From: a virus
Taxonomy: Duplodnaviria; Caudoviricetes
Length of the DNA stretch: 30,975 bases
IMG/VR virus record: IMGVR_UViG_3300033076_000560
Span: 1-30,975 of that record
Reading direction: 5' to 3' (one strand)
The notes under the pieces were generated by a model. It saw nothing but the letters and a program-made list of their open reading frames with translations. It did no database searches and was not told where the DNA came from. This document shows positions 1,917-29,767 of the stretch, piece after piece. Position 1 is the stretch's first letter. Each line of letters starts with the position of its first letter. The translations under genes were made by a program, and so were the position numbers.

Positions 1917-1946
1917 CATTTACATTAAAAATTTATACTATCTTTA
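1917..1946 (+). promoter_or_regulatory. Early promoter with ACATTAAAAATTTAT operator-like motif
   Basis: 15-mer at 1922-1936 is identical to 29200-29214; -7 box variant TATCTTTA at 1939-1946. Confidence 0.55.
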
Positions 1947-1969
1947 CACCAACAATTTAAATTAATCAC

Positions 1970-3910
1970 ATGAAAACTATCACTTTAAAAGCGTTAACAC
2001 TGCGCAATTTTAAGAAAATTCAATCGATTACAATTGAATTTGACCCTAGCGATACAACTATCACTGGCACCAACGGAGTAGGTAAATCAACAATCTTTGA
2101 TGCCTATACTTGGTTACTTTACGGCAAGAACTCGCACGACCAGCAGGATTTCTCAATCAAAACCCTAGACGAAAACAACAAAGTCATTAACCGCATTGAG
2201 CACAGCGTTACAGGCGTCTTTGATGTATCAGGCGAATCCGTAACGTTACAACGCATCTATACCGAGAAATGGACAAAGCGCCGAGGCTTTGAAGTTGAAG
2301 AGCTTACAGGGCATACAACCGACTATTTCATCAACGACGTACCGAAATCAAAAGCAGAGTTTGACGGCTATGTCAAAACCATGATTGAGGATAGCATTGC
2401 AAAGGTTATCAGCTCACCGCTTTACTTCAATGAGAAACTAAAATGGCAGGAGCGTCGCGAAATTTTGTCGAGCATGGCAGGCGACACAACGGCCGAGGAC
2501 GTGCTAAATTTTGCATCTGACGAACTTTCAGGTGCAAAAGAACTCATCGCACTACTCGACGCAAGAAAATCGCTTACAGACGAAAAAAGCCGCATAAGTG
2601 CGCAAAGAAAGAAACTACGCGAGGAACTCGAGCAAATAGACCCAAGGGTATCGGAGCTTCAGCGCATGGCTGAGCATGGTGTAAATACCGAGCAAGTAAA
2701 GGCAGATATTGAGACGTGCGAGCATTTGTTGCAGAACATCGAGCAACAGCAAGCCGACGAACTTAAAGCCCAAGAGGCGGCAAATGATGAGGTGCGCAAA
2801 CATAACGCCAAGAAGTTTGAGCTGGAGCAACAGTACACCAATCTCAAAGGCGAAGCAATGGCCGAGCATAACAAGAAGCAACAAAGCGTGCTAGCGCGTG
2901 AGCATGAGTTAAAAACTGAAATCCAAAAGATTGAGTTTGCTATTGCGGATTGGAATAGTAAGGCAAACCAACGCGCAAGCACTGAGAATTTATTACAGCA
3001 AAGAATTGCAGATTTACGCGATAGTTACATAGCATTGCAATCAAAACAATTTGACGAGAAATGTCAAGACGAAAATTGTCCAACGTGCGGCCAGCAAGTC
3101 CCGGACTACGCGGCTAAAGTCGAAGCAATGCGCGCTGATTTTAATACCAGCAAAGCAAAGCAACTCGCAGAGATAAACGCCAAAGGCAAGGAGCTAAAAA
3201 AGCAGATTGAAGCACTACAAATGCAATGCCCAGCGCATGAACTCGAAGCGCTTAAAGCCGAACTAGAAACCAAACAAACGTACTTACCCGAGTTTCAAAA
3301 AAGCATTGCAATAGATCAATTTGTTGACACCAACGAAATGACCGAACTACTCGCGCAAATCGAGGCGTTTGTACCGATGCAACCAAAGCAAGCGAGCAAC
3401 GCCGAACTAACCGAAAAGCGTAAAGAAATTAAAGCGCAATTAGACGCGCTAAAACTAGAGCTGGTAAAAGTACAGCAAGCCGAGCAAGTGCAGGGACGCA
3501 TTGTAGAACTAAACGAGCAACGCAAAAAGCTAGCTCAAGAAATCGCTACACTTGAAAAACTAGAGTTTCAAATCGAAGCCTACCAACGCGCTGAAATCAT
3601 GCTAATTGAAAGTAAGGTAAACAGCAAGTTCGCCCTGGTTAAATGGAAAATGTTTGATGAGCAACTCAATGGAGGCTTAGCGCCAACGTGTGAGGCAATT
3701 GTAAACGGAACGCCTTACAACGATCTAAACACGGCGAGCAAAATAAACGCAGGACTTGACGTAATCAACGCGCTTAACTATTATTTCAATGTGTTTGCGC
3801 CTGTATTCATTGACCAACGCGAAAGCATTGTAACGCTTCAGCCAACAGATTGCCAAGTGATTAGCTTGGTTGTGAATGATGAGTTTAAGGAATTGACGGT
3901 GATTAAGTAA
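1970..3910 (+). CDS. Rad50/SbcC-like (SMC-family) coiled-coil ATPase
   Basis: Walker A GTNGVGKST, long coiled coils, zinc-hook CPTCG, C-terminal LNTASKINAG and PVFIDQRES. Confidence 0.85.
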   Translation: MKTITLKALTLRNFKKIQSITIEFDPSDTTITGTNGVGKSTIFDAYTWLLYGKNSHDQQDFSIKTLDENNKVINRIEHSVTGVFDVSGESVTLQRIYTEKWTKRRGFEVEELTGHTTDYFINDVPKSKAEFDGYVKTMIEDSIAKVISSPLYFNEKLKWQERREILSSMAGDTTAEDVLNFASDELSGAKELIALLDARKSLTDEKSRISAQRKKLREELEQIDPRVSELQRMAEHGVNTEQVKADIETCEHLLQNIEQQQADELKAQEAANDEVRKHNAKKFELEQQYTNLKGEAMAEHNKKQQSVLAREHELKTEIQKIEFAIADWNSKANQRASTENLLQQRIADLRDSYIALQSKQFDEKCQDENCPTCGQQVPDYAAKVEAMRADFNTSKAKQLAEINAKGKELKKQIEALQMQCPAHELEALKAELETKQTYLPEFQKSIAIDQFVDTNEMTELLAQIEAFVPMQPKQASNAELTEKRKEIKAQLDALKLELVKVQQAEQVQGRIVELNEQRKKLAQEIATLEKLEFQIEAYQRAEIMLIESKVNSKFALVKWKMFDEQLNGGLAPTCEAIVNGTPYNDLNTASKINAGLDVINALNYYFNVFAPVFIDQRESIVTLQPTDCQVISLVVNDEFKELTVIK

Positions 3911-4762: not shown

Positions 4763-4796
4763 AAAGTTTTTTATTCACATTAAATTTTTATATTTG
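4758..4796 (+). promoter_or_regulatory. Early promoter upstream of recT
   Basis: TATATTTG 4789-4796, preceded by ACATTAAATTTT (a variant of the shared motif). Confidence 0.55.
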
Positions 4797-4824
4797 TAAA
4801 CTAACAATTAAAACCCAAATACAC

Positions 4825-5712
4825 ATGGAAAACAATCAACCTGCCGTAGTGCAGAAAGAAATCACAAGCCAAGTACTTGCGAAAATCAGCGCTTTTGAAG
4901 CGACTGGAGAACTTAAATTGCCTGCTGATTATTCGGCGGCTAACGCGCTAAAAGGCGCAATGCTTATTCTTGAAGAGCTCAAAGATAAAAACGGCACCCC
5001 CGTTATGCAATCGTGCACAAAAAACAGCATTGCCCAGGCGTTGCTAAAAATGGCAGTTGAAGGCCTATCACCTTTAAAGCGTCAAGGGTACTTTATCGCT
5101 TACGCAAACGATTTACAATGGTCCCGAAGCTATCAGGGTTCTATTGCATTGGCTAAACGCGTAGCAAAAGTCAAAGACGTACCGGCACAAGTCATTTATG
5201 AAGGCGACGAGTTCGAGTATGGCATTGATGAAAATGGCTACATGAAGATTTACAAGCACGTGCAAAAGATACAAAACATCAACAAGGATAAAATCGTTGG
5301 TGCGTACGCCGTTGTAATTTACGAGAACGGCGAGAAAAATGCTACGGTAATGACCATGGAGCAAATTAGGCAAGCATGGAACCAAGGAGCTACAAGAGGG
5401 CAATCTCCAGCGCATAAAAACTTTACCGACGAAATGGCGAAAAAGACGGTAATAAACCGAGCTTGTAAAGCACCAATTAACAGCTCAACAGATGCTTTCT
5501 TGCTTGAAGATGAGTACGAAGAAAAAGATACGACCATCGACATCAAGCACGAAATCGTAACCGAAAACGCAAGCCAACCACTTGAAATTTCAGCGCCAAA
5601 ACGAAAGCCAAAAGCAGAGCCTGCGCAAGAATTACCGCAAGCACCTGCGCCAGAGCCAACCGCCATGCAACCGAACATTGAGTTTGATTTATCTGAGGAA
5701 CCTGAATTTTAA
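4825..5712 (+). CDS. recT: RecT-family single-strand annealing recombinase
   Basis: SIAQALLKMAVEGLSP..QGYFIAY, SYQG, VIYEGDEF, FTDEMAKKTVINRACK; acidic C-terminal tail. Confidence 0.9.
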   Translation: MENNQPAVVQKEITSQVLAKISAFEATGELKLPADYSAANALKGAMLILEELKDKNGTPVMQSCTKNSIAQALLKMAVEGLSPLKRQGYFIAYANDLQWSRSYQGSIALAKRVAKVKDVPAQVIYEGDEFEYGIDENGYMKIYKHVQKIQNINKDKIVGAYAVVIYENGEKNATVMTMEQIRQAWNQGATRGQSPAHKNFTDEMAKKTVINRACKAPINSSTDAFLLEDEYEEKDTTIDIKHEIVTENASQPLEISAPKRKPKAEPAQELPQAPAPEPTAMQPNIEFDLSEEPEF

Positions 5713-7662: not shown

Positions 7663-7664
7663 AC

Positions 7665-7742
7665 ATGAAAAATTACGAAAGATTTTTACACATTTTAGCA
7701 GGTATCGCAATAGGTTACCTGCTTTTCACCGCAACACTTTAA
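7665..7742 (+). CDS. 25-aa single-TM peptide (not in ORF track)
   Basis: MKNYERFLHILAGIAIGYLLFTATL*; lies between the previous stop and the terminator. Confidence 0.45.
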   Translation: MKNYERFLHILAGIAIGYLLFTATL

Positions 7743-7780: not shown

Positions 7781-7794
7781 ATTTACCTTTGATA

Positions 7795-8295
7795 GTGGAC
7801 TTTTGGAATAAACAAGCATACGAAATCGCCTACAAGATTACATCTGGCCGCGACATTCACCGCGATCTAGTTGCTTTCGTGTACATTTTGCTACATGACA
7901 GAGGCATCGTTGCTGTTTCATTGCCTGCTGTATTTGCCCGCTATGCCTATCAGCAATATAACTGGAAGGATAGCGCGTTCAATAAGCAATATGCCAGCTA
8001 CACGGTTGACATTTCACAAATAAATATCGAGAAAGCCCAAGAGCAATATCAAGAAAACGGGTATGGAGTGCTACTAGATGAGTATTTTGATGAAGAAAGC
8101 AAGAGCGAAAATGAATTTTTTTGCAAAGAAATTGCTAAACTTGTCTTTCAATCAATGAGTTACCGCGAAATTGAGCGCTTAACAGGTATCAATATCCGCA
8201 CTACACACAAATCAATTAAACAATTTGCACATGATTTTAGGGATTTTTGCAGCCGTCGGAGCGGCCAGAGCATGGGAAACAATCAACAGGATTGA
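7795..8295 (+). CDS. Sigma-70/ECF-like factor, probable late-gene activator
   Basis: Region-2-like DLVAFVYILL; region-4 HTH MSYREIERLTGINIRTTHKSIK; placed before the packaging genes. Start is GTG 7795 or TTG 7789. Confidence 0.65.
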   Translation: MDFWNKQAYEIAYKITSGRDIHRDLVAFVYILLHDRGIVAVSLPAVFARYAYQQYNWKDSAFNKQYASYTVDISQINIEKAQEQYQENGYGVLLDEYFDEESKSENEFFCKEIAKLVFQSMSYREIERLTGINIRTTHKSIKQFAHDFRDFCSRRSGQSMGNNQQD

Positions 8296-13251: not shown

Positions 13252-15512
13252 TGGACACGCAATTATTGATAAATGGCTTTGAGGTTGATTTAGCCGAGCG
13301 GCCAACGTTCCCGTTTTCATACAGCGTTGTTGAGTTGACCGATTTGTCAAAGCGCACGGGTAACTCTTCAAAAACCATAGTGTTGCCCGGAACATCAAAA
13401 AATCAATTGATATTCAACAGCATCTTTGAGCTCAGTTATATTCAAGACCCAAATGGGCAAAGCAGCTCGCTAGTTGATTTTGACCCAACAGTGAAAGCAA
13501 CGGCACAAGTATATCAAAATGGGCTATTGCAATTTAACGGCATCGCCCAGCTATTGACTTGCAAAATGCTAAAAGGCTTTTGGGTTTTCGAGGTCTCTTT
13601 GACTAGCGAAATAATTGACTACGTCGCCAAGATGCAGGAAGTCAAAATTTGTGAGCTTGATTTTTCTGAATACGATCATCTTTTGCGGCTTGAACGAGTT
13701 ACCGAAACATGGCTAGGAAACAACTACATAAACGGCGCGACAACCTCAATTAAAAGCGGTAGCGATTGGCTAGGTATCGGCTACTATTACGGCCTGATTG
13801 ATTACGGATTTCAAAGACCAAACGCGACAACGTGGGGATTGGAGCAATTCCCGTTACAAGTATTCATGTACGGCATACTTCAAAAGCTATTTGAGGCCGT
13901 CGGGCTTACATGGAGTAGCAACTTTTTAGAAAGCCAGCGATTCAAAAAACTAGCTTTAGCGTATGCAGGTGGTGAATTACCGTCGATTACCACCGCGCAA
14001 GCAGCAGCATTGAGCGCTACTAATGAGCAAATAAGCGCATCAACTTACTTTATTGAGGGTTCAAGCCCTGCTAACATTCAACAGCAAGTCATTAACGGTA
14101 CGCCTGAGTTTATTATAGGATTTGGCGAGGCTACATTTGCCGCGGCTTTATCGGTAAACGTACTAAGCGACCCGGGTAATCAAATGATAAGCGCATCACC
14201 ATTGCTATTCAAAGCGGCATCAAAAGGCCTTTACAACTTTGACTATTCCGGAACTCATGATTTTGATTTGAATTTCAATCTTTCTGGGGCAACTATTACA
14301 GCCATCAATGCGACTTATAAACTCAAGGCGGTAATCTATAAAAACAATGCAGTTTATTCAATTGAGGACATTTATAGCGGCAGCATTACCTCAACAGCTT
14401 TAAGTCAAAGCTACTCGATTAGTTACAGCTACTCAAAGCCTATCAACTTAAATATCAATGATGAGGTACGCATATCTTTTCGCCTTGTCATTAACATGAC
14501 GGGCATCGACATTGCAGGCTACTCTGGGCAAACGCTTAACTATTTTGCAGGCATCAAACCAAACTTAGCGGCCGCAAATATCAACAAGCAAGTAACGCAA
14601 ATCGCGCCTAATGAAATTGTAAGTCTTTCGGCATTGCTGCCAGATATGACCGGTAGCGACTTCTTTAACGGGATTTGTAAAATGTTCAACTTGCTAGTAT
14701 CACCCGACCAATACGAACCAACACAGCTAAACATCGAGCCGCTGATTGAATACTACAAGCCCGTAAACGAAGCGCTCAATTTTACCAACAAGTTAGACTT
14801 CAACGAGCAAATCGAAATCGTGCCCTCAGTCAATTACGCATCGAAGCAATATATTTTCAAATGGGCCGACGACGACGATTATTTTAATGTGGACTACAAG
14901 AATAAGTTTGATGAGCAATTTGGATCGTTTACAGTTTACAACCAGTCGCAGTACGCCTCACAAAACACGGTGTATCAATTGCCATTTTCACAAAAGGTTA
15001 TGGCTGATATTCCTGAGGACGATAGCACGTTCACGGGAATAATTGTACCGCGTTGTTTGAGCGTTCAATCTGGGTCTACTGCCAGCGCAAAAAAGGGTAA
15101 GCCGTTTGTTGTTCAGGTGGGCAATATGCGCGGTGTATCATTTCGCGTTGTGGATGAGCTAGGAGTAACCAACTCATTTAGTGAATATCCATACGTTGGA
15201 CACTTAGACGACATCGACGCGCCTACATTCGACTTGAATTTTGGAGTGCCAGACGTGCTTTATTGGCTTGGCGCTACTTATACGCAAAACAACCTATACC
15301 AATATCATGAGCAATTTATTAAAGAGCTTGTAAGCCGTTACGGCCGCCTTGTCAAATGCTCAATACGTTGGAATGAAGCCGATATTTACGCGCTTGACTT
15401 TAGGTATTTGCTACAAATAAATGGGGTTGTCTATCGCTTGCAAAAGATAAGCGACTACAATCCAACAAATGACAACTCAACCAAAACTGAACTACTTAAA
15501 TATATCGACTAA
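13251..15512 (+). CDS. Tail-tip hub/baseplate structural protein
   Basis: 753 aa; SKTIVLPGTSKNQLIF N-terminal motif, DFFNGICKMFNL; TAATG coupling. Confidence 0.65.
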   Translation: MDTQLLINGFEVDLAERPTFPFSYSVVELTDLSKRTGNSSKTIVLPGTSKNQLIFNSIFELSYIQDPNGQSSSLVDFDPTVKATAQVYQNGLLQFNGIAQLLTCKMLKGFWVFEVSLTSEIIDYVAKMQEVKICELDFSEYDHLLRLERVTETWLGNNYINGATTSIKSGSDWLGIGYYYGLIDYGFQRPNATTWGLEQFPLQVFMYGILQKLFEAVGLTWSSNFLESQRFKKLALAYAGGELPSITTAQAAALSATNEQISASTYFIEGSSPANIQQQVINGTPEFIIGFGEATFAAALSVNVLSDPGNQMISASPLLFKAASKGLYNFDYSGTHDFDLNFNLSGATITAINATYKLKAVIYKNNAVYSIEDIYSGSITSTALSQSYSISYSYSKPINLNINDEVRISFRLVINMTGIDIAGYSGQTLNYFAGIKPNLAAANINKQVTQIAPNEIVSLSALLPDMTGSDFFNGICKMFNLLVSPDQYEPTQLNIEPLIEYYKPVNEALNFTNKLDFNEQIEIVPSVNYASKQYIFKWADDDDYFNVDYKNKFDEQFGSFTVYNQSQYASQNTVYQLPFSQKVMADIPEDDSTFTGIIVPRCLSVQSGSTASAKKGKPFVVQVGNMRGVSFRVVDELGVTNSFSEYPYVGHLDDIDAPTFDLNFGVPDVLYWLGATYTQNNLYQYHEQFIKELVSRYGRLVKCSIRWNEADIYALDFRYLLQINGVVYRLQKISDYNPTNDNSTKTELLKYID

Positions 15513-18028
15513 TGGCAGAAAAAGAAGCGGTTTTCTCGGTAAGGGTTAACACCGGGAACTCAATAAACGACCTCAATAGCTTTGATAAGGCATTGAACAA
15601 CCTAAATAACGATGTAAACAAGACGCAAAGCAACCTTGCAGATAACACAGCAACAGATGATTTTGCTAAAAACCTTGAAGAACTAAACGCTAAAGTAGCG
15701 GCAGGTGGTCTTTCAATGCGCCAATTGTCAAAAGTGGTGCGCGAATACCAATCAATTGTAATGCAAGCAGGCGAGCAAAGCCCCGTTGGCCAATCAGCAC
15801 TAAGGGCGGCAGCAGAACTTACCGATAGAATGGGGGATGTTCGAGCCCAAACAACCGCGTTAAGTTCTGATTTTGTAGGCTTGGACACCGCCGTTATGGG
15901 TATTCAAACGGGCGCAGCCGTCTTTGAGGGCGTACAAAGCGCCATTGCCTTAACGGGTGTTGAAAATGAAAAGCTGATGCAAACCATGGTAAAGCTACAA
16001 GCAGTGCAAGGTGTTGCAAATAGCATCAATACAATTGCCGTATCGCTCAACAAAGAAAGCGTGCTTGGTTTACAATTACGCACGGCTTGGGAACGCATTT
16101 ACGCGGCATCCGTTGGCCAATCAACTGGAGCCATGAAGTTATTTCGCGTTGCTTTGATTTCAACAGGTATCGGCGCGCTTATTGTTGGCCTAGGTTTGCT
16201 CATTGCTAACTTTGATAAGGTTACTAAGTTTGTGCAAGCGGCTTACGACAAGTTCAATAAGCTGGGCGCAGGTGTGAAAATTGCCATTTCGGTAATGTTC
16301 CCAATAATTGGCGTGCTTTACGGCATTACCAAAGCGCTAGAATACTTCGGAGTAATTGACGACGAAACCGAACGCAAAACAAAAGCCAATGCAACAAGAC
16401 GAACCAAGCATGCGCAAAAGGAAGCTGATGAAAACATCAAGCAACTGAAGCGCCAGCAAAAGTCTATCAGCGATAAATACGATCATGAAATAAACATGGC
16501 CAAGGCGGCAGGAAAAGACACTGCCGATTTGGAACAAAAGAAACGCGCCGAAATGCTAAAGACTGGGCGCGCAATACTTGAGGAGCTCAAAAAGAAAAAG
16601 GCCGCGTATGAAGAAGAACTAGCAATGCTTAAAAAACTTGGCGATGCAGATAGCAAACGCGCTAAGGACTTGAAAAAGTCAATCAGCGAAAGCCGCACAG
16701 CTGAAAAAGAGCAATACAACGAGAATAAAAAAAATAAGCAGGACATGGAAGTTGCCGAGCAAGAAGCGGCAACCAAAGCTAATGACCGCGCCAAAGAGCG
16801 TAAGAAGTTACGCGACGATGAACTCGCGCAAATCAAAGGCTACTTGAAAGAGGTTGAACAATACAACATGACCAATGAGGAGCGCGATATTGCGGGCGTA
16901 CAAGAGAAGTTTGCCGAGCGGTTGAAAGCCGCGCGTAAATACTACAAAGAGGATTCGCCACAGGTGCAAGCCTTACTCATTCAGCAGATGAATGAAGAAA
17001 ACGACGTGCGGCTAAAATATCAAAATGAGGAGTACGCTAAGACGGTTGAAAACAACGCCAAGAAACTAAAAGAAGCTGAGGATTTAGAAAAGAAAAAACT
17101 AGAGCTATACAATGAAGCTCAAGCAATCATTCTGGACGAATACCAACTAGAGCTTAAAAACTTTGAAGATGCGCAGCGCAAGCAAGTAGAGGCATTAAGC
17201 GAAGCCAACAAGCTAAAGCAAATCACCGATGAAGAATATCTAAAAGGCATGGAGAAACTTGAAAAAGATTATGCCGATAAAGTGGTTGACATCAACAAGA
17301 AAAAAGCCGATAAGATAAAAGAACAAGACAAAAAGAGCCTTGATGAAAAACTAGCCAGTGTGCAATCAATGATTGATGCCGCGCAAAAAATTCTAAACGG
17401 CCTAAACGCAATTAATGACTTGGTAAAGGTTGCGGAGGAAAACCGACTTAACGACGTGAAGCAACGCGCTGAGCAGCAAACAGCCGTGCTTGACCAACAG
17501 CAACAAAGGGAACTTGCACAGCAAGGATTGACCGAGCAGCAAAAGCAGGGCATTAATGACAAGTACGCACAGCTTAAATATCAAAATCAGCTCAAAGCAT
17601 TTCAGGAGGAGGACAAGATTAAGCGTGCTCAGTTCAAGCGAGACAAGGCGCTACGTATTGCTCAAATTGCTATTGATACAGCAAGCGCCATTGTGAAAGG
17701 TATCGCGGAATACGGGCCACCTCCTTCACCTGCTGGTATCTTTGCAATTAGTGCCGCCTCGGCTATCGGTTTAGCGCAAGCAGCCGCCGTTGGAGCTCAG
17801 CAATATCAAGGCGGTCAAATGCCGCAAGCGCCTAATGTTTCGGGCGGTGTGGGCGCAGGCGCATCTACTTTTTCAATAGGCACGAACACGCAGCAAACCA
17901 ACACGCAAACGCAGCAAACACAAACGCAAACGCAAACCATTACACCGGTTGTTGTGCTCGAGGTTAATGACTTTAATGAGGTCGCCAACAAAGTAGCTGT
18001 ACAAGAAGCAAAAAGCAAATTTGGGTAA
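15512..18028 (+). CDS. Tail tape measure protein
   Basis: 838 aa helical protein; hydrophobic ALISTGIGALIVGLGLLIANFD segment, long K/E coiled coil, Ala/Gly-rich C-terminus. Confidence 0.85.
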   Translation: MAEKEAVFSVRVNTGNSINDLNSFDKALNNLNNDVNKTQSNLADNTATDDFAKNLEELNAKVAAGGLSMRQLSKVVREYQSIVMQAGEQSPVGQSALRAAAELTDRMGDVRAQTTALSSDFVGLDTAVMGIQTGAAVFEGVQSAIALTGVENEKLMQTMVKLQAVQGVANSINTIAVSLNKESVLGLQLRTAWERIYAASVGQSTGAMKLFRVALISTGIGALIVGLGLLIANFDKVTKFVQAAYDKFNKLGAGVKIAISVMFPIIGVLYGITKALEYFGVIDDETERKTKANATRRTKHAQKEADENIKQLKRQQKSISDKYDHEINMAKAAGKDTADLEQKKRAEMLKTGRAILEELKKKKAAYEEELAMLKKLGDADSKRAKDLKKSISESRTAEKEQYNENKKNKQDMEVAEQEAATKANDRAKERKKLRDDELAQIKGYLKEVEQYNMTNEERDIAGVQEKFAERLKAARKYYKEDSPQVQALLIQQMNEENDVRLKYQNEEYAKTVENNAKKLKEAEDLEKKKLELYNEAQAIILDEYQLELKNFEDAQRKQVEALSEANKLKQITDEEYLKGMEKLEKDYADKVVDINKKKADKIKEQDKKSLDEKLASVQSMIDAAQKILNGLNAINDLVKVAEENRLNDVKQRAEQQTAVLDQQQQRELAQQGLTEQQKQGINDKYAQLKYQNQLKAFQEEDKIKRAQFKRDKALRIAQIAIDTASAIVKGIAEYGPPPSPAGIFAISAASAIGLAQAAAVGAQQYQGGQMPQAPNVSGGVGAGASTFSIGTNTQQTNTQTQQTQTQTQTITPVVVLEVNDFNEVANKVAVQEAKSKFG
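17881..17938 (+). repeat. CAAAC(G/A/C)-type degenerate hexamer repeat in the TMP C-terminus
   Basis: Encodes TNTQQTNTQTQQTQTQTQT. Confidence 0.6.
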
Positions 18029-24164: not shown

Positions 24165-24821
24165 ATGGAAATGACAATAAACCAACTAGCAAAAGAGCTC
24201 GAAATAATAGCCCAAGAGCATAAGCAAATTAACGGCTTTTTCTTTGGCGAGTTCTTTCAGGCTTTCGCTCAGGAAGAACCGGTAAGTTATCCGCTCATGG
24301 TTGTAACATTACAACCCGGCTCGATGTCCGAAAAAACGGTAAACGTGAACTGCATAATTACAATTTGCGACAAGTATATAACCGACAATGTGCGAAGCGT
24401 TAAGGAAGTGCACAGCGATTGTTTGCAAATCCTTCGCGACATTGACATAACGCTACGTCAAGAACGTTTTGAGGATTTAACGCTAAGCACTCAAAACGCA
24501 ACTGAGCCATTTGTCGAAAGGCAGGCTGATATTATAGCTGGGTGGTTTATGTCCGTTCAAATGAACATATTTGACTTGCAAGATTGGTGCGCGATTCCTT
24601 ACTATAATTATGATTTTGAAAACGGCGATGGCGCTTACGTGCCAGAGTGCGAACCCGCTGCCGTAACAAATACCGATGACACTTACAACGATCAAATTGC
24701 GGCAGGGCAAACGCTTATTTTGCCCGATACAGCGGTAACTGTATTCGTTGAAGGTGTCGAGCAACAAACGCAACAACTGCCCACATTAGGAAGTGGCACG
24801 ATAACAATAAATTGGCAATAA
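24165..24821 (+). CDS. Tail terminator/completion-like protein with a C-terminal beta extension
   Basis: YPLMVV...SDCLQILRDI...EPFVER..IAGW...CAIP pattern. Confidence 0.6.
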   Translation: MEMTINQLAKELEIIAQEHKQINGFFFGEFFQAFAQEEPVSYPLMVVTLQPGSMSEKTVNVNCIITICDKYITDNVRSVKEVHSDCLQILRDIDITLRQERFEDLTLSTQNATEPFVERQADIIAGWFMSVQMNIFDLQDWCAIPYYNYDFENGDGAYVPECEPAAVTNTDDTYNDQIAAGQTLILPDTAVTVFVEGVEQQTQQLPTLGSGTITINWQ

Positions 24822-28212: not shown

Positions 28213-29079
28213 ATGCAGCTTAAAAGACACGCGAAAAACATTCATGAGTTAAAAATCAGCGGCACGCGTGTACGGCTTGCTATTTTTAGCGATGTGCATT
28301 GGGATAATCCAAAATGCGATTGGGATTTATTGCGGAGAGATTTAGACTATTGCCTGAAGGAAAGCATACCAATCATGTTTAACGGCGATACCTTTTGCCT
28401 CATGCAGGGGAAATGGGACCCGCGCGGCAATAAATCGGACGTGCGCCCAGAACACAACACAATTAAATATCTTGATGCGGTAATTGAAACGGCGGTAGAA
28501 TTTTTTGCGCCTTACGCGCATTTAATTACAGTTGTCGGCTATGGTAATCATGAGACAAGCATTTTAAAAAGACACGAAACAGACGTTTTGCAACGCTTTG
28601 TTGATTTGCTTAACTACAAATGCAGCTCAAATGTTCAAGCGGGCGGCTATGGCGGCTGGATAGTCATAAAGCAATTAGCAAAAAACAACAATCGTTTAAG
28701 CACAAAGATTCGCTACCACCATGGCTCTGGAGGTGGCGGCATTGTTACACGCGGCGAAATCAATTTAACGCGAGCTCTTGAAATGTACGAAGATTTTGAG
28801 GTGTTTACTATGGGTCATATTCACGAAAACAAGTGTACAAATGTTGTGCGCGATACAATAGGATTTGTAGCTCACAATGGGTTTAAGCAAGTTCAAAAAC
28901 AATTGCACTTAATGATCACAGGAACGTACAAAGAAGAATTTGGCGACGGCTCGAAAGGTTGGCACGTAGAGCGAGGTGCACCGATTAAACCGCTTGGCGG
29001 CCGCATCTTAGTAATTGATACCAGGCGCACGGGCAATTGTCATTTAAAAAGTATTGATAGTATGAAATTCCCAATTTAA
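28213..29079 (+). CDS. Calcineurin-like metallophosphoesterase
   Basis: SDVH, NGD, GNHE, HHG and GHIH motifs. Confidence 0.9.
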   Translation: MQLKRHAKNIHELKISGTRVRLAIFSDVHWDNPKCDWDLLRRDLDYCLKESIPIMFNGDTFCLMQGKWDPRGNKSDVRPEHNTIKYLDAVIETAVEFFAPYAHLITVVGYGNHETSILKRHETDVLQRFVDLLNYKCSSNVQAGGYGGWIVIKQLAKNNNRLSTKIRYHHGSGGGGIVTRGEINLTRALEMYEDFEVFTMGHIHENKCTNVVRDTIGFVAHNGFKQVQKQLHLMITGTYKEEFGDGSKGWHVERGAPIKPLGGRILVIDTRRTGNCHLKSIDSMKFPI

Positions 29080-29082
29080 TCA

Positions 29083-29156
29083 TATCTTTGAATTGTTAGC
29101 AGGGTGATAGCTGTTTTCATGTGTGGGGGGCCCTTATAGAGTGAGCCCCCTTTTTT
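29083..29156 (+). ncRNA. Candidate ~60-nt small RNA (promoter box to terminator)
   Basis: TATCTTTG at 29083-29090; body 29099-29124 antisense to early start codons; GGGGGC/GCCCCC-T6 terminator. Confidence 0.45.
29125..29156 (+). terminator. Intrinsic terminator ending the late region
   Basis: GGGGGC (29126-29131) / GCCCCC (29145-29150) plus TTTTTT. Confidence 0.75.
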
Positions 29157-29195: not shown

Positions 29196-29224
29196 TTTGA
29201 CATTAAAAATTTATCGTATATTTG
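29196..29224 (+). promoter_or_regulatory. Major early promoter with shared 15-bp operator-like spacer motif
   Basis: TTTG 29196-29199, 17 bp, TATATTTG 29217-29224; A/T tracts upstream. Confidence 0.7.
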
Positions 29225-29251
29225 TCAAACAAAACGCTAATAATTAAACAC

Positions 29252-29467
29252 ATGACTATCACAGAACACACCAAAAAACTAAAGCCGCTGATTGATTCAG
29301 CGAGCTATCTAATCAAGCAAATAGAAATTTGCGAAAACGAGCTAGATAAGCTCATGTCATTGCCGCCATTATACCGCGAGAGACTACAAGATGAAGTCGA
29401 AATGTGGCTAAGAAATGGCGAGCAGTATTACAAATCACTTTTAGAAATCACTAACAAATTGAAATAA
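29252..29467 (+). CDS. Hypothetical early protein
   Basis: ATG 29252 preferred, since TTG 29222 is inside the promoter; 71 aa, helical. Confidence 0.65.
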   Translation: MTITEHTKKLKPLIDSASYLIKQIEICENELDKLMSLPPLYRERLQDEVEMWLRNGEQYYKSLLEITNKLK

Positions 29468-29685: not shown

Positions 29686-29767
29686 GAGAGAGCGCCTGTT
29701 TATTTTTGGCGCAGTATTATTTTGGATCACATTACTAACACTTAAAATCCTATCACAATGCCACTAA
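29672..29767 (+). CDS. 31-aa single-TM peptide
   Basis: MRKIERERLFIFGAVLFWITLLTLKILSQCH*; bridges the gap between its neighbours. Confidence 0.5.
   Translation: MRKIERERLFIFGAVLFWITLLTLKILSQCH

Follow-up and report, generated by a model that had tools for sequence, protein, structure and literature searches.

The window analysed here is a virus record of 30,975 bases, estimated by CheckV to be 95% complete, whose credible genes all lie on the + strand. Its gene order can be followed from a set of early small genes starting at 29252, across the record end, to a replication gene (471), a gene for an SbcC-like ATPase (1970) and recT (4825), and thence through the terminase, structural and lysis genes to a phosphoesterase gene that ends at 29079. 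The promoter boxes are of the TAnnTTTG type and point to a Bacteroidota host for this freshwater-type phage. A search for a cultured relative among 50,697 phage records returned no match to the major capsid candidate, and the ATPase matches among those listed are 32–35% identical. Neither a PF00589 tyrosine integrase nor an HTH_3 repressor was found in any of five genomes examined, four of them complete with terminal repeats. The end of the late block and the three early promoters comprise the following features:

28213..29079, + strand: gene for a calcineurin-like metallophosphoesterase (Pfam Metallophos), the final gene of the late/lysis block
29083..29090, + strand: Bacteroidota sigma-A -7 box of the TAnnTTTG type, TATCTTTG, recognized by sequence
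29095..29156, + strand: predicted sRNA of ~61 nt with no ORF on the + strand (fold; box-to-terminator unit finder)
29098..29124, + strand: pairing region (unpaired probabilities; identity in relatives)
29125..29156, + strand: intrinsic terminator, a G/C hairpin (29125-29151, -14.8 kcal/mol) and T run
29202..29224, + strand: first early promoter, directly 3′ of the sRNA terminator (palindrome 29202-29215, -7 box 29217-29224)
1924..1946, + strand: early promoter of the ATPase operon (palindrome 1924-1937, -7 box 1939-1946)
4779..4796, + strand: early promoter of the recT operon (palindrome 4779-4792, overlapping the -7 box 4789-4796)

The predicted RNA and the early promoters

The original prediction described a box and a terminator enclosing ~60 nt without an ORF, and this arrangement is confirmed, with the box at 29083-29090, the hairpin at 29125-29151 and a T run extending to 29156; likewise, all the strings that it quoted (29083-29090, the reverse complement of 29099-29124, 1967-1983, 4821-4844 and 29248-29262) lie where it placed them. 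Bacteroidota -7 boxes occupy positions -12 to -5, according to PMC9723704, and the box at 29083-29090 therefore places the predicted transcription start at 29095. The unit finder reported two box-to-terminator units in the window, of which this is one; a simple terminator scan did not list the terminator, which would also end the late/lysis transcript. Within the pairing region a weak 5-bp hairpin (29098-29102 with 29111-29115) leaves exposed, as judged by unpaired probabilities, its loop (29103-29110) and an anti-start stretch (29116-29124), such that the seed is partly sequestered in the free fold, both in the window RNA and in the subtype B1 described below. When the window and eight relative loci were compared with Rfam, no match reached the gathering score and those below it were at chance level only, while an exact 19-nt seed search of viral contigs gave a single match, which is unrelated and gene-internal. 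Of the sequencing runs listed, none of RNA contains the stretch, and the single DNA run that does, with its sequence unaltered, may be where the window comes from and carries no weight here.

The promoter of the predicted RNA has no operator-like palindrome upstream of it, which sets it apart from the three early promoters. The latter were originally noted to share the motif ACATTAAA, and this string does occur three times on the + strand (1922, 4777 and 29200), each time 5′ of an operon-leading gene; however, it makes better sense as the left half, together with two further bases, of a 14-bp palindrome, (T/G)ATAAA-NN-TTTAT(A/C), that abuts or overlaps the -7 box at all three sites. The palindrome is present in every related genome holding these sites, in all the lineages examined. 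A protein binding this operator-like element was looked for and none was identified.

Two further arrangements in the early region are worth recording. At 346-445 a promoter box precedes the replication gene, and the leader of ~100 nt behind it contains a pair of complementary segments and finishes in a terminator-like structure; the sequence of this leader varies among relatives while its layout is kept, and it looks like an attenuator. At 7784-8295 a box right after the early-block terminator precedes a 168-aa ORF with a non-ATG start, which is 61–97% conserved in relatives, displays a weak C-terminal HTH-like match (E 0.002) and is a candidate late regulator.

Pairing with early-operon starts

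Four start regions were considered as targets:

1967..1986, + strand: predicted target 1, start region of the SbcC-like ATPase gene (1970-3910; PHROG 77, Pfam AAA_23)
4821..4844, + strand: predicted target 2, start region of recT (4825-5712; Pfam RecT)
29248..29262, + strand: possible weak target 3 by pairing, start of the first early gene (29252-29467, unknown function)
29750..29760, + strand: possible further weak target, CTATCAC just 5′ of the start of gene 29758 (rank 3 of 45, -14.3)

With folding included, the recT start ranks first among 45 called starts, with a predicted 22-bp duplex and a binding dG of -19.5 kcal/mol, and the ATPase start second, at -18.3 kcal/mol, with 11+9 bp flanking a 3-nt bulge, two G:U pairs among them, plus 3 marginal bp; the median over the 45 start regions is -6.3 kcal/mol. 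This bears out the complementarity to these two genes from which the original prediction set out. Both duplexes cover the AUG, and their G:U pairs fit recognition of RNA rather than of DNA. The third proposed target, the start at 29252, bears both tags, CACATG and CTATCAC, and pairs only through 7+4+4 bp (-14.0 kcal/mol, rank 5 of 45). Thus, of the proposed three-target antisense RNA, the ATPase and recT stand, on the strength of rank, shuffles and reciprocal co-variation, whereas 29252 is weak. The CTATCAC tag at 29750-29760 is retained in two close relatives, L125 and L126, but may be coding-constrained since it lies inside an upstream small ORF. By their pairing, 29252 and 29758 may be weaker targets. 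The start lists comprise + strand ATG ORFs of at least 40–45 aa, taken from the first ATG with two starts corrected by hand; they take in some doubtful starts and leave out short or non-ATG genes. Below their length cut, and situated where the early block ends (7663-7740), is a short ORF of ~24 aa, the start of which is a 9-nt perfect match to the sRNA.

By raw duplex energy over 47 hand-listed starts the ATPase ranks first and recT second, and across the whole + strand the first 30 nt of the RNA find no longer perfect match than an 11-mer at the ATPase start. These 30 nt were shuffled 1000 times per scheme and scored by raw-duplex energy, a metric that in this run places a probably spurious start (29591) second and the ATPase third. 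Both observed energies were reached in 0/1000 dinucleotide shuffles, in 0/1000 that retained TTTTCAT and in 1/1000 that retained TTTTCATGTGT; any two starts equalled or exceeded the observed best-two sum in 31/1000, 17/1000 and 72/1000, respectively. The scan against shuffled controls that had been suggested favours the ATPase and recT as a specific pair, but is less stringent for any two starts. The caveat that ATGAAAA contexts are common is borne out to the extent that this string opens 6 of the 45 genes; against a chance match, none of the TTTTCAT-keeping shuffles reached both targets. In a raw genome-wide scan that ignores accessibility five gene-internal sites outscore the ATPase site, and binding of the window RNA is as strong at 5 of 410 non-cognate start regions, from two distinct genes, as at the ATPase start. 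From the window alone, the complementarity makes a suggestive case for an antisense RNA.

Lineage-matched change in relatives

Syntenic phages were collected by searching with the ATPase, with RecT and with aligned sequences of the first early protein. Among 22 loci found with the first early protein, a box-to-terminator unit lies at the same place in 20, which form two clusters of close relatives; the two counted as misses are L124, a rearranged contig with 316 nt upstream, and L130, whose contig is too short on that side (152 nt). The L124 contig is 97–100% like the window in two genes, has some segments inverted, with foreign sequence 5′ of the first early leader, and is probably chimeric. 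In several relatives the metallophosphoesterase gene upstream of the unit has been swapped for another gene, while the unit stays.

The first cluster, lineage A, comprises the window, L125, L126 and L127. Its 27-nt pairing region is identical in all four, while the terminator stem varies (it differs in L125 and L126 and still folds, at -18.0 and -16.0 kcal/mol) and the upstream gene is a different one in L126 and L127; this conservation is modest evidence because the genomes are 82–94% alike in their longer matching blocks. In lineage B, whose ATPase is 49–51% identical to that of lineage A, the unit is ~100 nt long and of other sequence, with two U/G-rich stretches on either side of a central hairpin. 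Its boxes are non-consensus (TAAATTTA, TAAATTCA and TAACTTCA) and overlap the upstream stop codon. The lower stem of the hairpin is unlike in subtypes B1 and B2 and folds in both; RNAalifold failed to align this hairpin correctly across 11 lineage-B sequences and gave support for the terminator alone (two-sided change in 3 of 22 pairs), so that covariation in the hairpin is read from single folds. A TTTTCAT unit had been anticipated in relatives, and this holds for the closest lineage only: in the more distant one other seeds pair just upstream of the ATG.

The RNAs of the two lineages change in step with their predicted targets, as the original prediction had put forward for checking, and the pairing is lost when the RNAs are swapped. 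The lineage-A RNAs rank recT first and the ATPase second, both among 45 starts in the window and among 29 in L125, at -16.7 to -19.7 kcal/mol. When four lineage-B RNAs are set against the lineage-A targets, the energies are -5.2 to -9.2 and the ranks drop to 17–29 for the ATPase and 8–20 for recT. Against eight lineage-B target sets, the lineage-B RNAs place the ATPase at rank 1–4 (-12.7 to -15.8) and recT at 1–6 (-10.5 to -16.0), and the lineage-A RNAs place them at 5–18 (-6.6 to -8.5) and 3–24 (-5.8 to -10.5). Whatever the number of genomes, this exchange counts as one independent contrast. In lineage B both seeds jointly pair with one continuous stretch of ~20 nt just upstream of the ATPase AUG, the 5′ seed also pairing at the start of recT, while the first early gene ranks 1–14 in the eight lineage-B genomes for the two lineage-B RNAs tested. 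For four of six RNAs tested (A, B1, B2 and D2) the longest perfect match genome-wide falls at the ATPase or recT start.

A third lineage (D; G009 and G010), with ATPases 43–48% identical to those of A and B, has two tandem units downstream of the lysin, the pairing of which suggests a lineage-matched relation in weaker form. Unit 1 mirrors a tag of 8 nt found at the starts of the ATPase gene and of the first early gene, and ranks its own ATPase fourth of 43 and third of 48, compared with 9–40 in foreign genomes. Unit 2 places its own recT first in G009 and sixth in G010; it is not specific, because the G009 unit also ranks the ATPases of A and B second. In G008 and G011, whose post-lysis region lies outside the contigs, a unit behind a relocated phosphoesterase gene ranks recT second of 43 and fourth of 32, respectively, with the ATPase at 32nd and 18th. 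It is this comparative, lineage-matched change in predicted pairing that we regard as the decisive evidence for a relation between the RNA and its targets.

Units following the same phosphoesterase gene in other phages were also compared. Among 17 picked by hand from 80 loci with phosphoesterase relatives, which are partial and belong mostly to other phage types, only four had an own-locus start that beats all 70 foreign starts, for which reason the architecture of box and terminator by itself proves nothing. The four (L039, L066, L078 and L079) lie just 3′ of the phosphoesterase gene in other freshwater-type phages, and the seed of L039 resembles that of the third lineage.

Proposed function, alternatives and related RNAs

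We propose that 29095-29156 probably encodes an sRNA of ~61 nt which acts in trans on several targets, damping translation of the ATPase and recT; taken together, the pairing and its co-variation make it a well-supported candidate for a phage sRNA with more than one target, two of them strong and one weak. At the level of motifs it has its own promoter, an intrinsic terminator and no ORF; it lies apart from its targets and is imperfectly complementary to several mRNAs; and its conserved accessible seed, which is only partly unpaired, tracks those targets. In the mechanism we envisage, the host polymerase would transcribe a discrete RNA from this promoter, first contact would be made by the loop and the anti-AUG stretch, both of them exposed, and pairing would then extend across the ATPase and recT start codons, blocking ribosome loading and turning down the early recombination operons, an outcome of repression rather than activation. 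Since the promoter of the RNA is devoid of the palindrome, the RNA might keep accumulating while the early promoters are shut by a DNA-binding protein seated on that palindrome. The sRNA would thus be the second layer of a two-layer early shut-off, in a phage in which no integrase was found.

The most serious alternative is that the RNA that does this pairing is the 3′ end of the late lysis transcript, either intact or released by an RNase, and has no promoter of its own; the RNA would then be present only late, and early translation shut off at that stage. The unit does follow immediately on the final late gene, the late operon would naturally finish at its terminator, and the non-consensus lineage-B boxes that overlap the stop codon also accord with such an origin. 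We nevertheless think it unlikely: the distance from box to seed is constant in all 20 unit-bearing loci despite exchange of the upstream gene, the similarity between the window and L126/L127 starts inside the box, each tandem extra unit has its own box, and the box variant TAACTTCG also serves an early promoter in L133. It is a good deal more doubtful that the RNA is real but has a different main task from temporal shut-off, be it superinfection exclusion or carrier-state immunity, or stimulation of its targets. That operator-like palindromes mark the early promoters of phages in which five of five genomes had no PF00589 integrase or HTH_3 gene, that seeds vary by lineage as immunity determinants do, and that there are extra tandem units without an own-genome target would all suit exclusion or immunity; against this, no plasmid-maintenance gene was recognized in the window, and against stimulation, the pairing covers the AUG or adjacent bases, which favours repression.

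Matches that arose without selection, whether by coincidence of composition or in a functionless inverted relic, are hardly probable either. Bacteroidota start regions are A/C-rich and pre-terminator stretches U/G-rich, the any-two shuffle frequency and the common ATGAAAA openings noted above point in the same direction, the U-rich unit D2 cross-reacts between lineages, and 13 of the 17 similar-looking units in other phages are without a clear own-locus target. Yet the lineage-B RNAs, which are equally U/G-rich, do not match the lineage-A starts, nor the lineage-A RNAs those of lineage B; the same two genes are targeted in each lineage by different sequences; and shuffles that keep TTTTCAT do not recover the pair. 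The least credible of the alternatives, which we regard as highly improbable, is that the stretch resembles a gene start because it is one, that of a small minus-strand gene for a 14-aa peptide that begins MKTAITLLT. Here, a frame of 14–17 codons is open and its first nine residues are common to the four lineage-A sequences, but the C-terminal halves differ, lineages B and D have no equivalent frame and their seeds mirror non-coding leaders, the sole nearby minus-strand box (29194) is lost in L125, and both the -7 box and the T run indicate transcription of the + strand.

Two known RNAs offer parallels to the proposed multi-target sRNA. Like the c4 RNA of phages P1 and P7 (RF01695), it is phage-encoded and partially complementary to phage genes. 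In c4, two separate single-stranded seeds join on one target, and the lineage-B RNA resembles it in bringing two seeds to one target. Unlike c4, the window RNA is directed at recombination operons rather than icd-ant, in a phage whose host is of Bacteroidota type by promoter motif, with no repressor or antirepressor found and no cloverleaf in the window case. We accordingly do not assign it to the c4 family: the window and the eight relative loci gave no RF01695 match at the gathering score, nor any up to an E-value of 5. C4 regulates ant, as stated in PMC8201110; no ant or icd was recognized among the 46 window proteins, and the predicted targets are the ATPase and recT. The second parallel is GibS of Bacteroides thetaiotaomicron, which, according to PMC7366714, represses Bacteroidota mRNAs that have no SD by pairing at their start regions. 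With it the window RNA shares a trans-encoded gene, a largely single-stranded 5′ seed, long pairing across SD-less start codons and an intrinsic terminator; GibS differs in being chromosomal and 145 nt long with metabolic-gene targets, and the window RNA has no Rfam hit at the gathering score. Among the Bacteroides sRNA families in Rfam, BTnc201 scored 17.9 bits against a gathering threshold of 105 (E 1.5) and was rejected. By analogy, then, the window RNA would work like c4 and GibS while belonging to neither family.

In the sections of PMC12197685 consulted, the phage RNAs acting as repressors of phage genes are for the most part cis-antisense RNAs with a single target or Hfq-dependent RNAs from Proteobacteria. 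To the former belong OOP (lambda cII), Sar (P22 ant), aQ and PAK_P4as15, which repress by pairing and are transcribed opposite a single target, whereas the window RNA is encoded apart from several targets and pairs imperfectly. A cis-antisense RNA of the OOP/Sar type was rejected, as the window RNA is intergenic, on the same strand as all the genes, with a longest perfect match of 11 nt. To the latter belong the trans-acting, phage-encoded VpdS (VP882), PreS (lambda) and 24B_1, none of which those sections describe as directed against the first genes of several early operons; an obvious Hfq is lacking in Bacteroides, according to PMC7366714. No description of such an RNA in Bacteroidota phages was found among the literature entries consulted. 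If the proposal is correct, this would be a different means of timing a phage programme or of excluding kin: an RNA that acts in trans and co-evolves with the start regions of several early operons, in a host that has neither Hfq nor SD sequences. The two lineages would amount to a natural swap experiment, each RNA being expected to repress its own targets alone, and the RNA to a compact tool for translational control in Bacteroidota.

More speculatively, and with considerable doubt, one could see the gap between the lysis genes and the first early promoter as a variable antisense-RNA cassette of repressor-less Bacteroidota phages, in which a core RNA, rewritten lineage by lineage in step with the tags at the early-operon starts, would act as an RNA-only master repressor and immunity determinant, and optional tandem RNAs, swapped between unrelated phages, would silence genes of the host or of rival phages. 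Optional second box-to-terminator units are seen in L126 (6587-6659), L127, L184, L087 (G002 24187-24255) and L091 (G005 14656-14724), with a 5′ part that is conserved across lineage A, lineage B and L184, the last a phage with different neighbouring genes. No own-genome target was found for this unit in the two complete genomes tested; because its complement resembles the beginning of a gene, M(N/T)QYRK, it may be aimed at an mRNA of the host or of a rival phage. A search for a host target with a degenerate 19-mer gave 66 scattered genome hits and no recurring gene. One of these hits, probably by chance, lies at the start of a long ORF in an uncultured Flavobacterium (L193:601-619, - strand), which we take to be malic-enzyme-like. 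In lineage B there is in addition a short mid-genome box-to-terminator unit (G004 15739-15781, also in G005-G007 and G017), the target of which is not evident, and a third type of second unit is present in L114 and L118.
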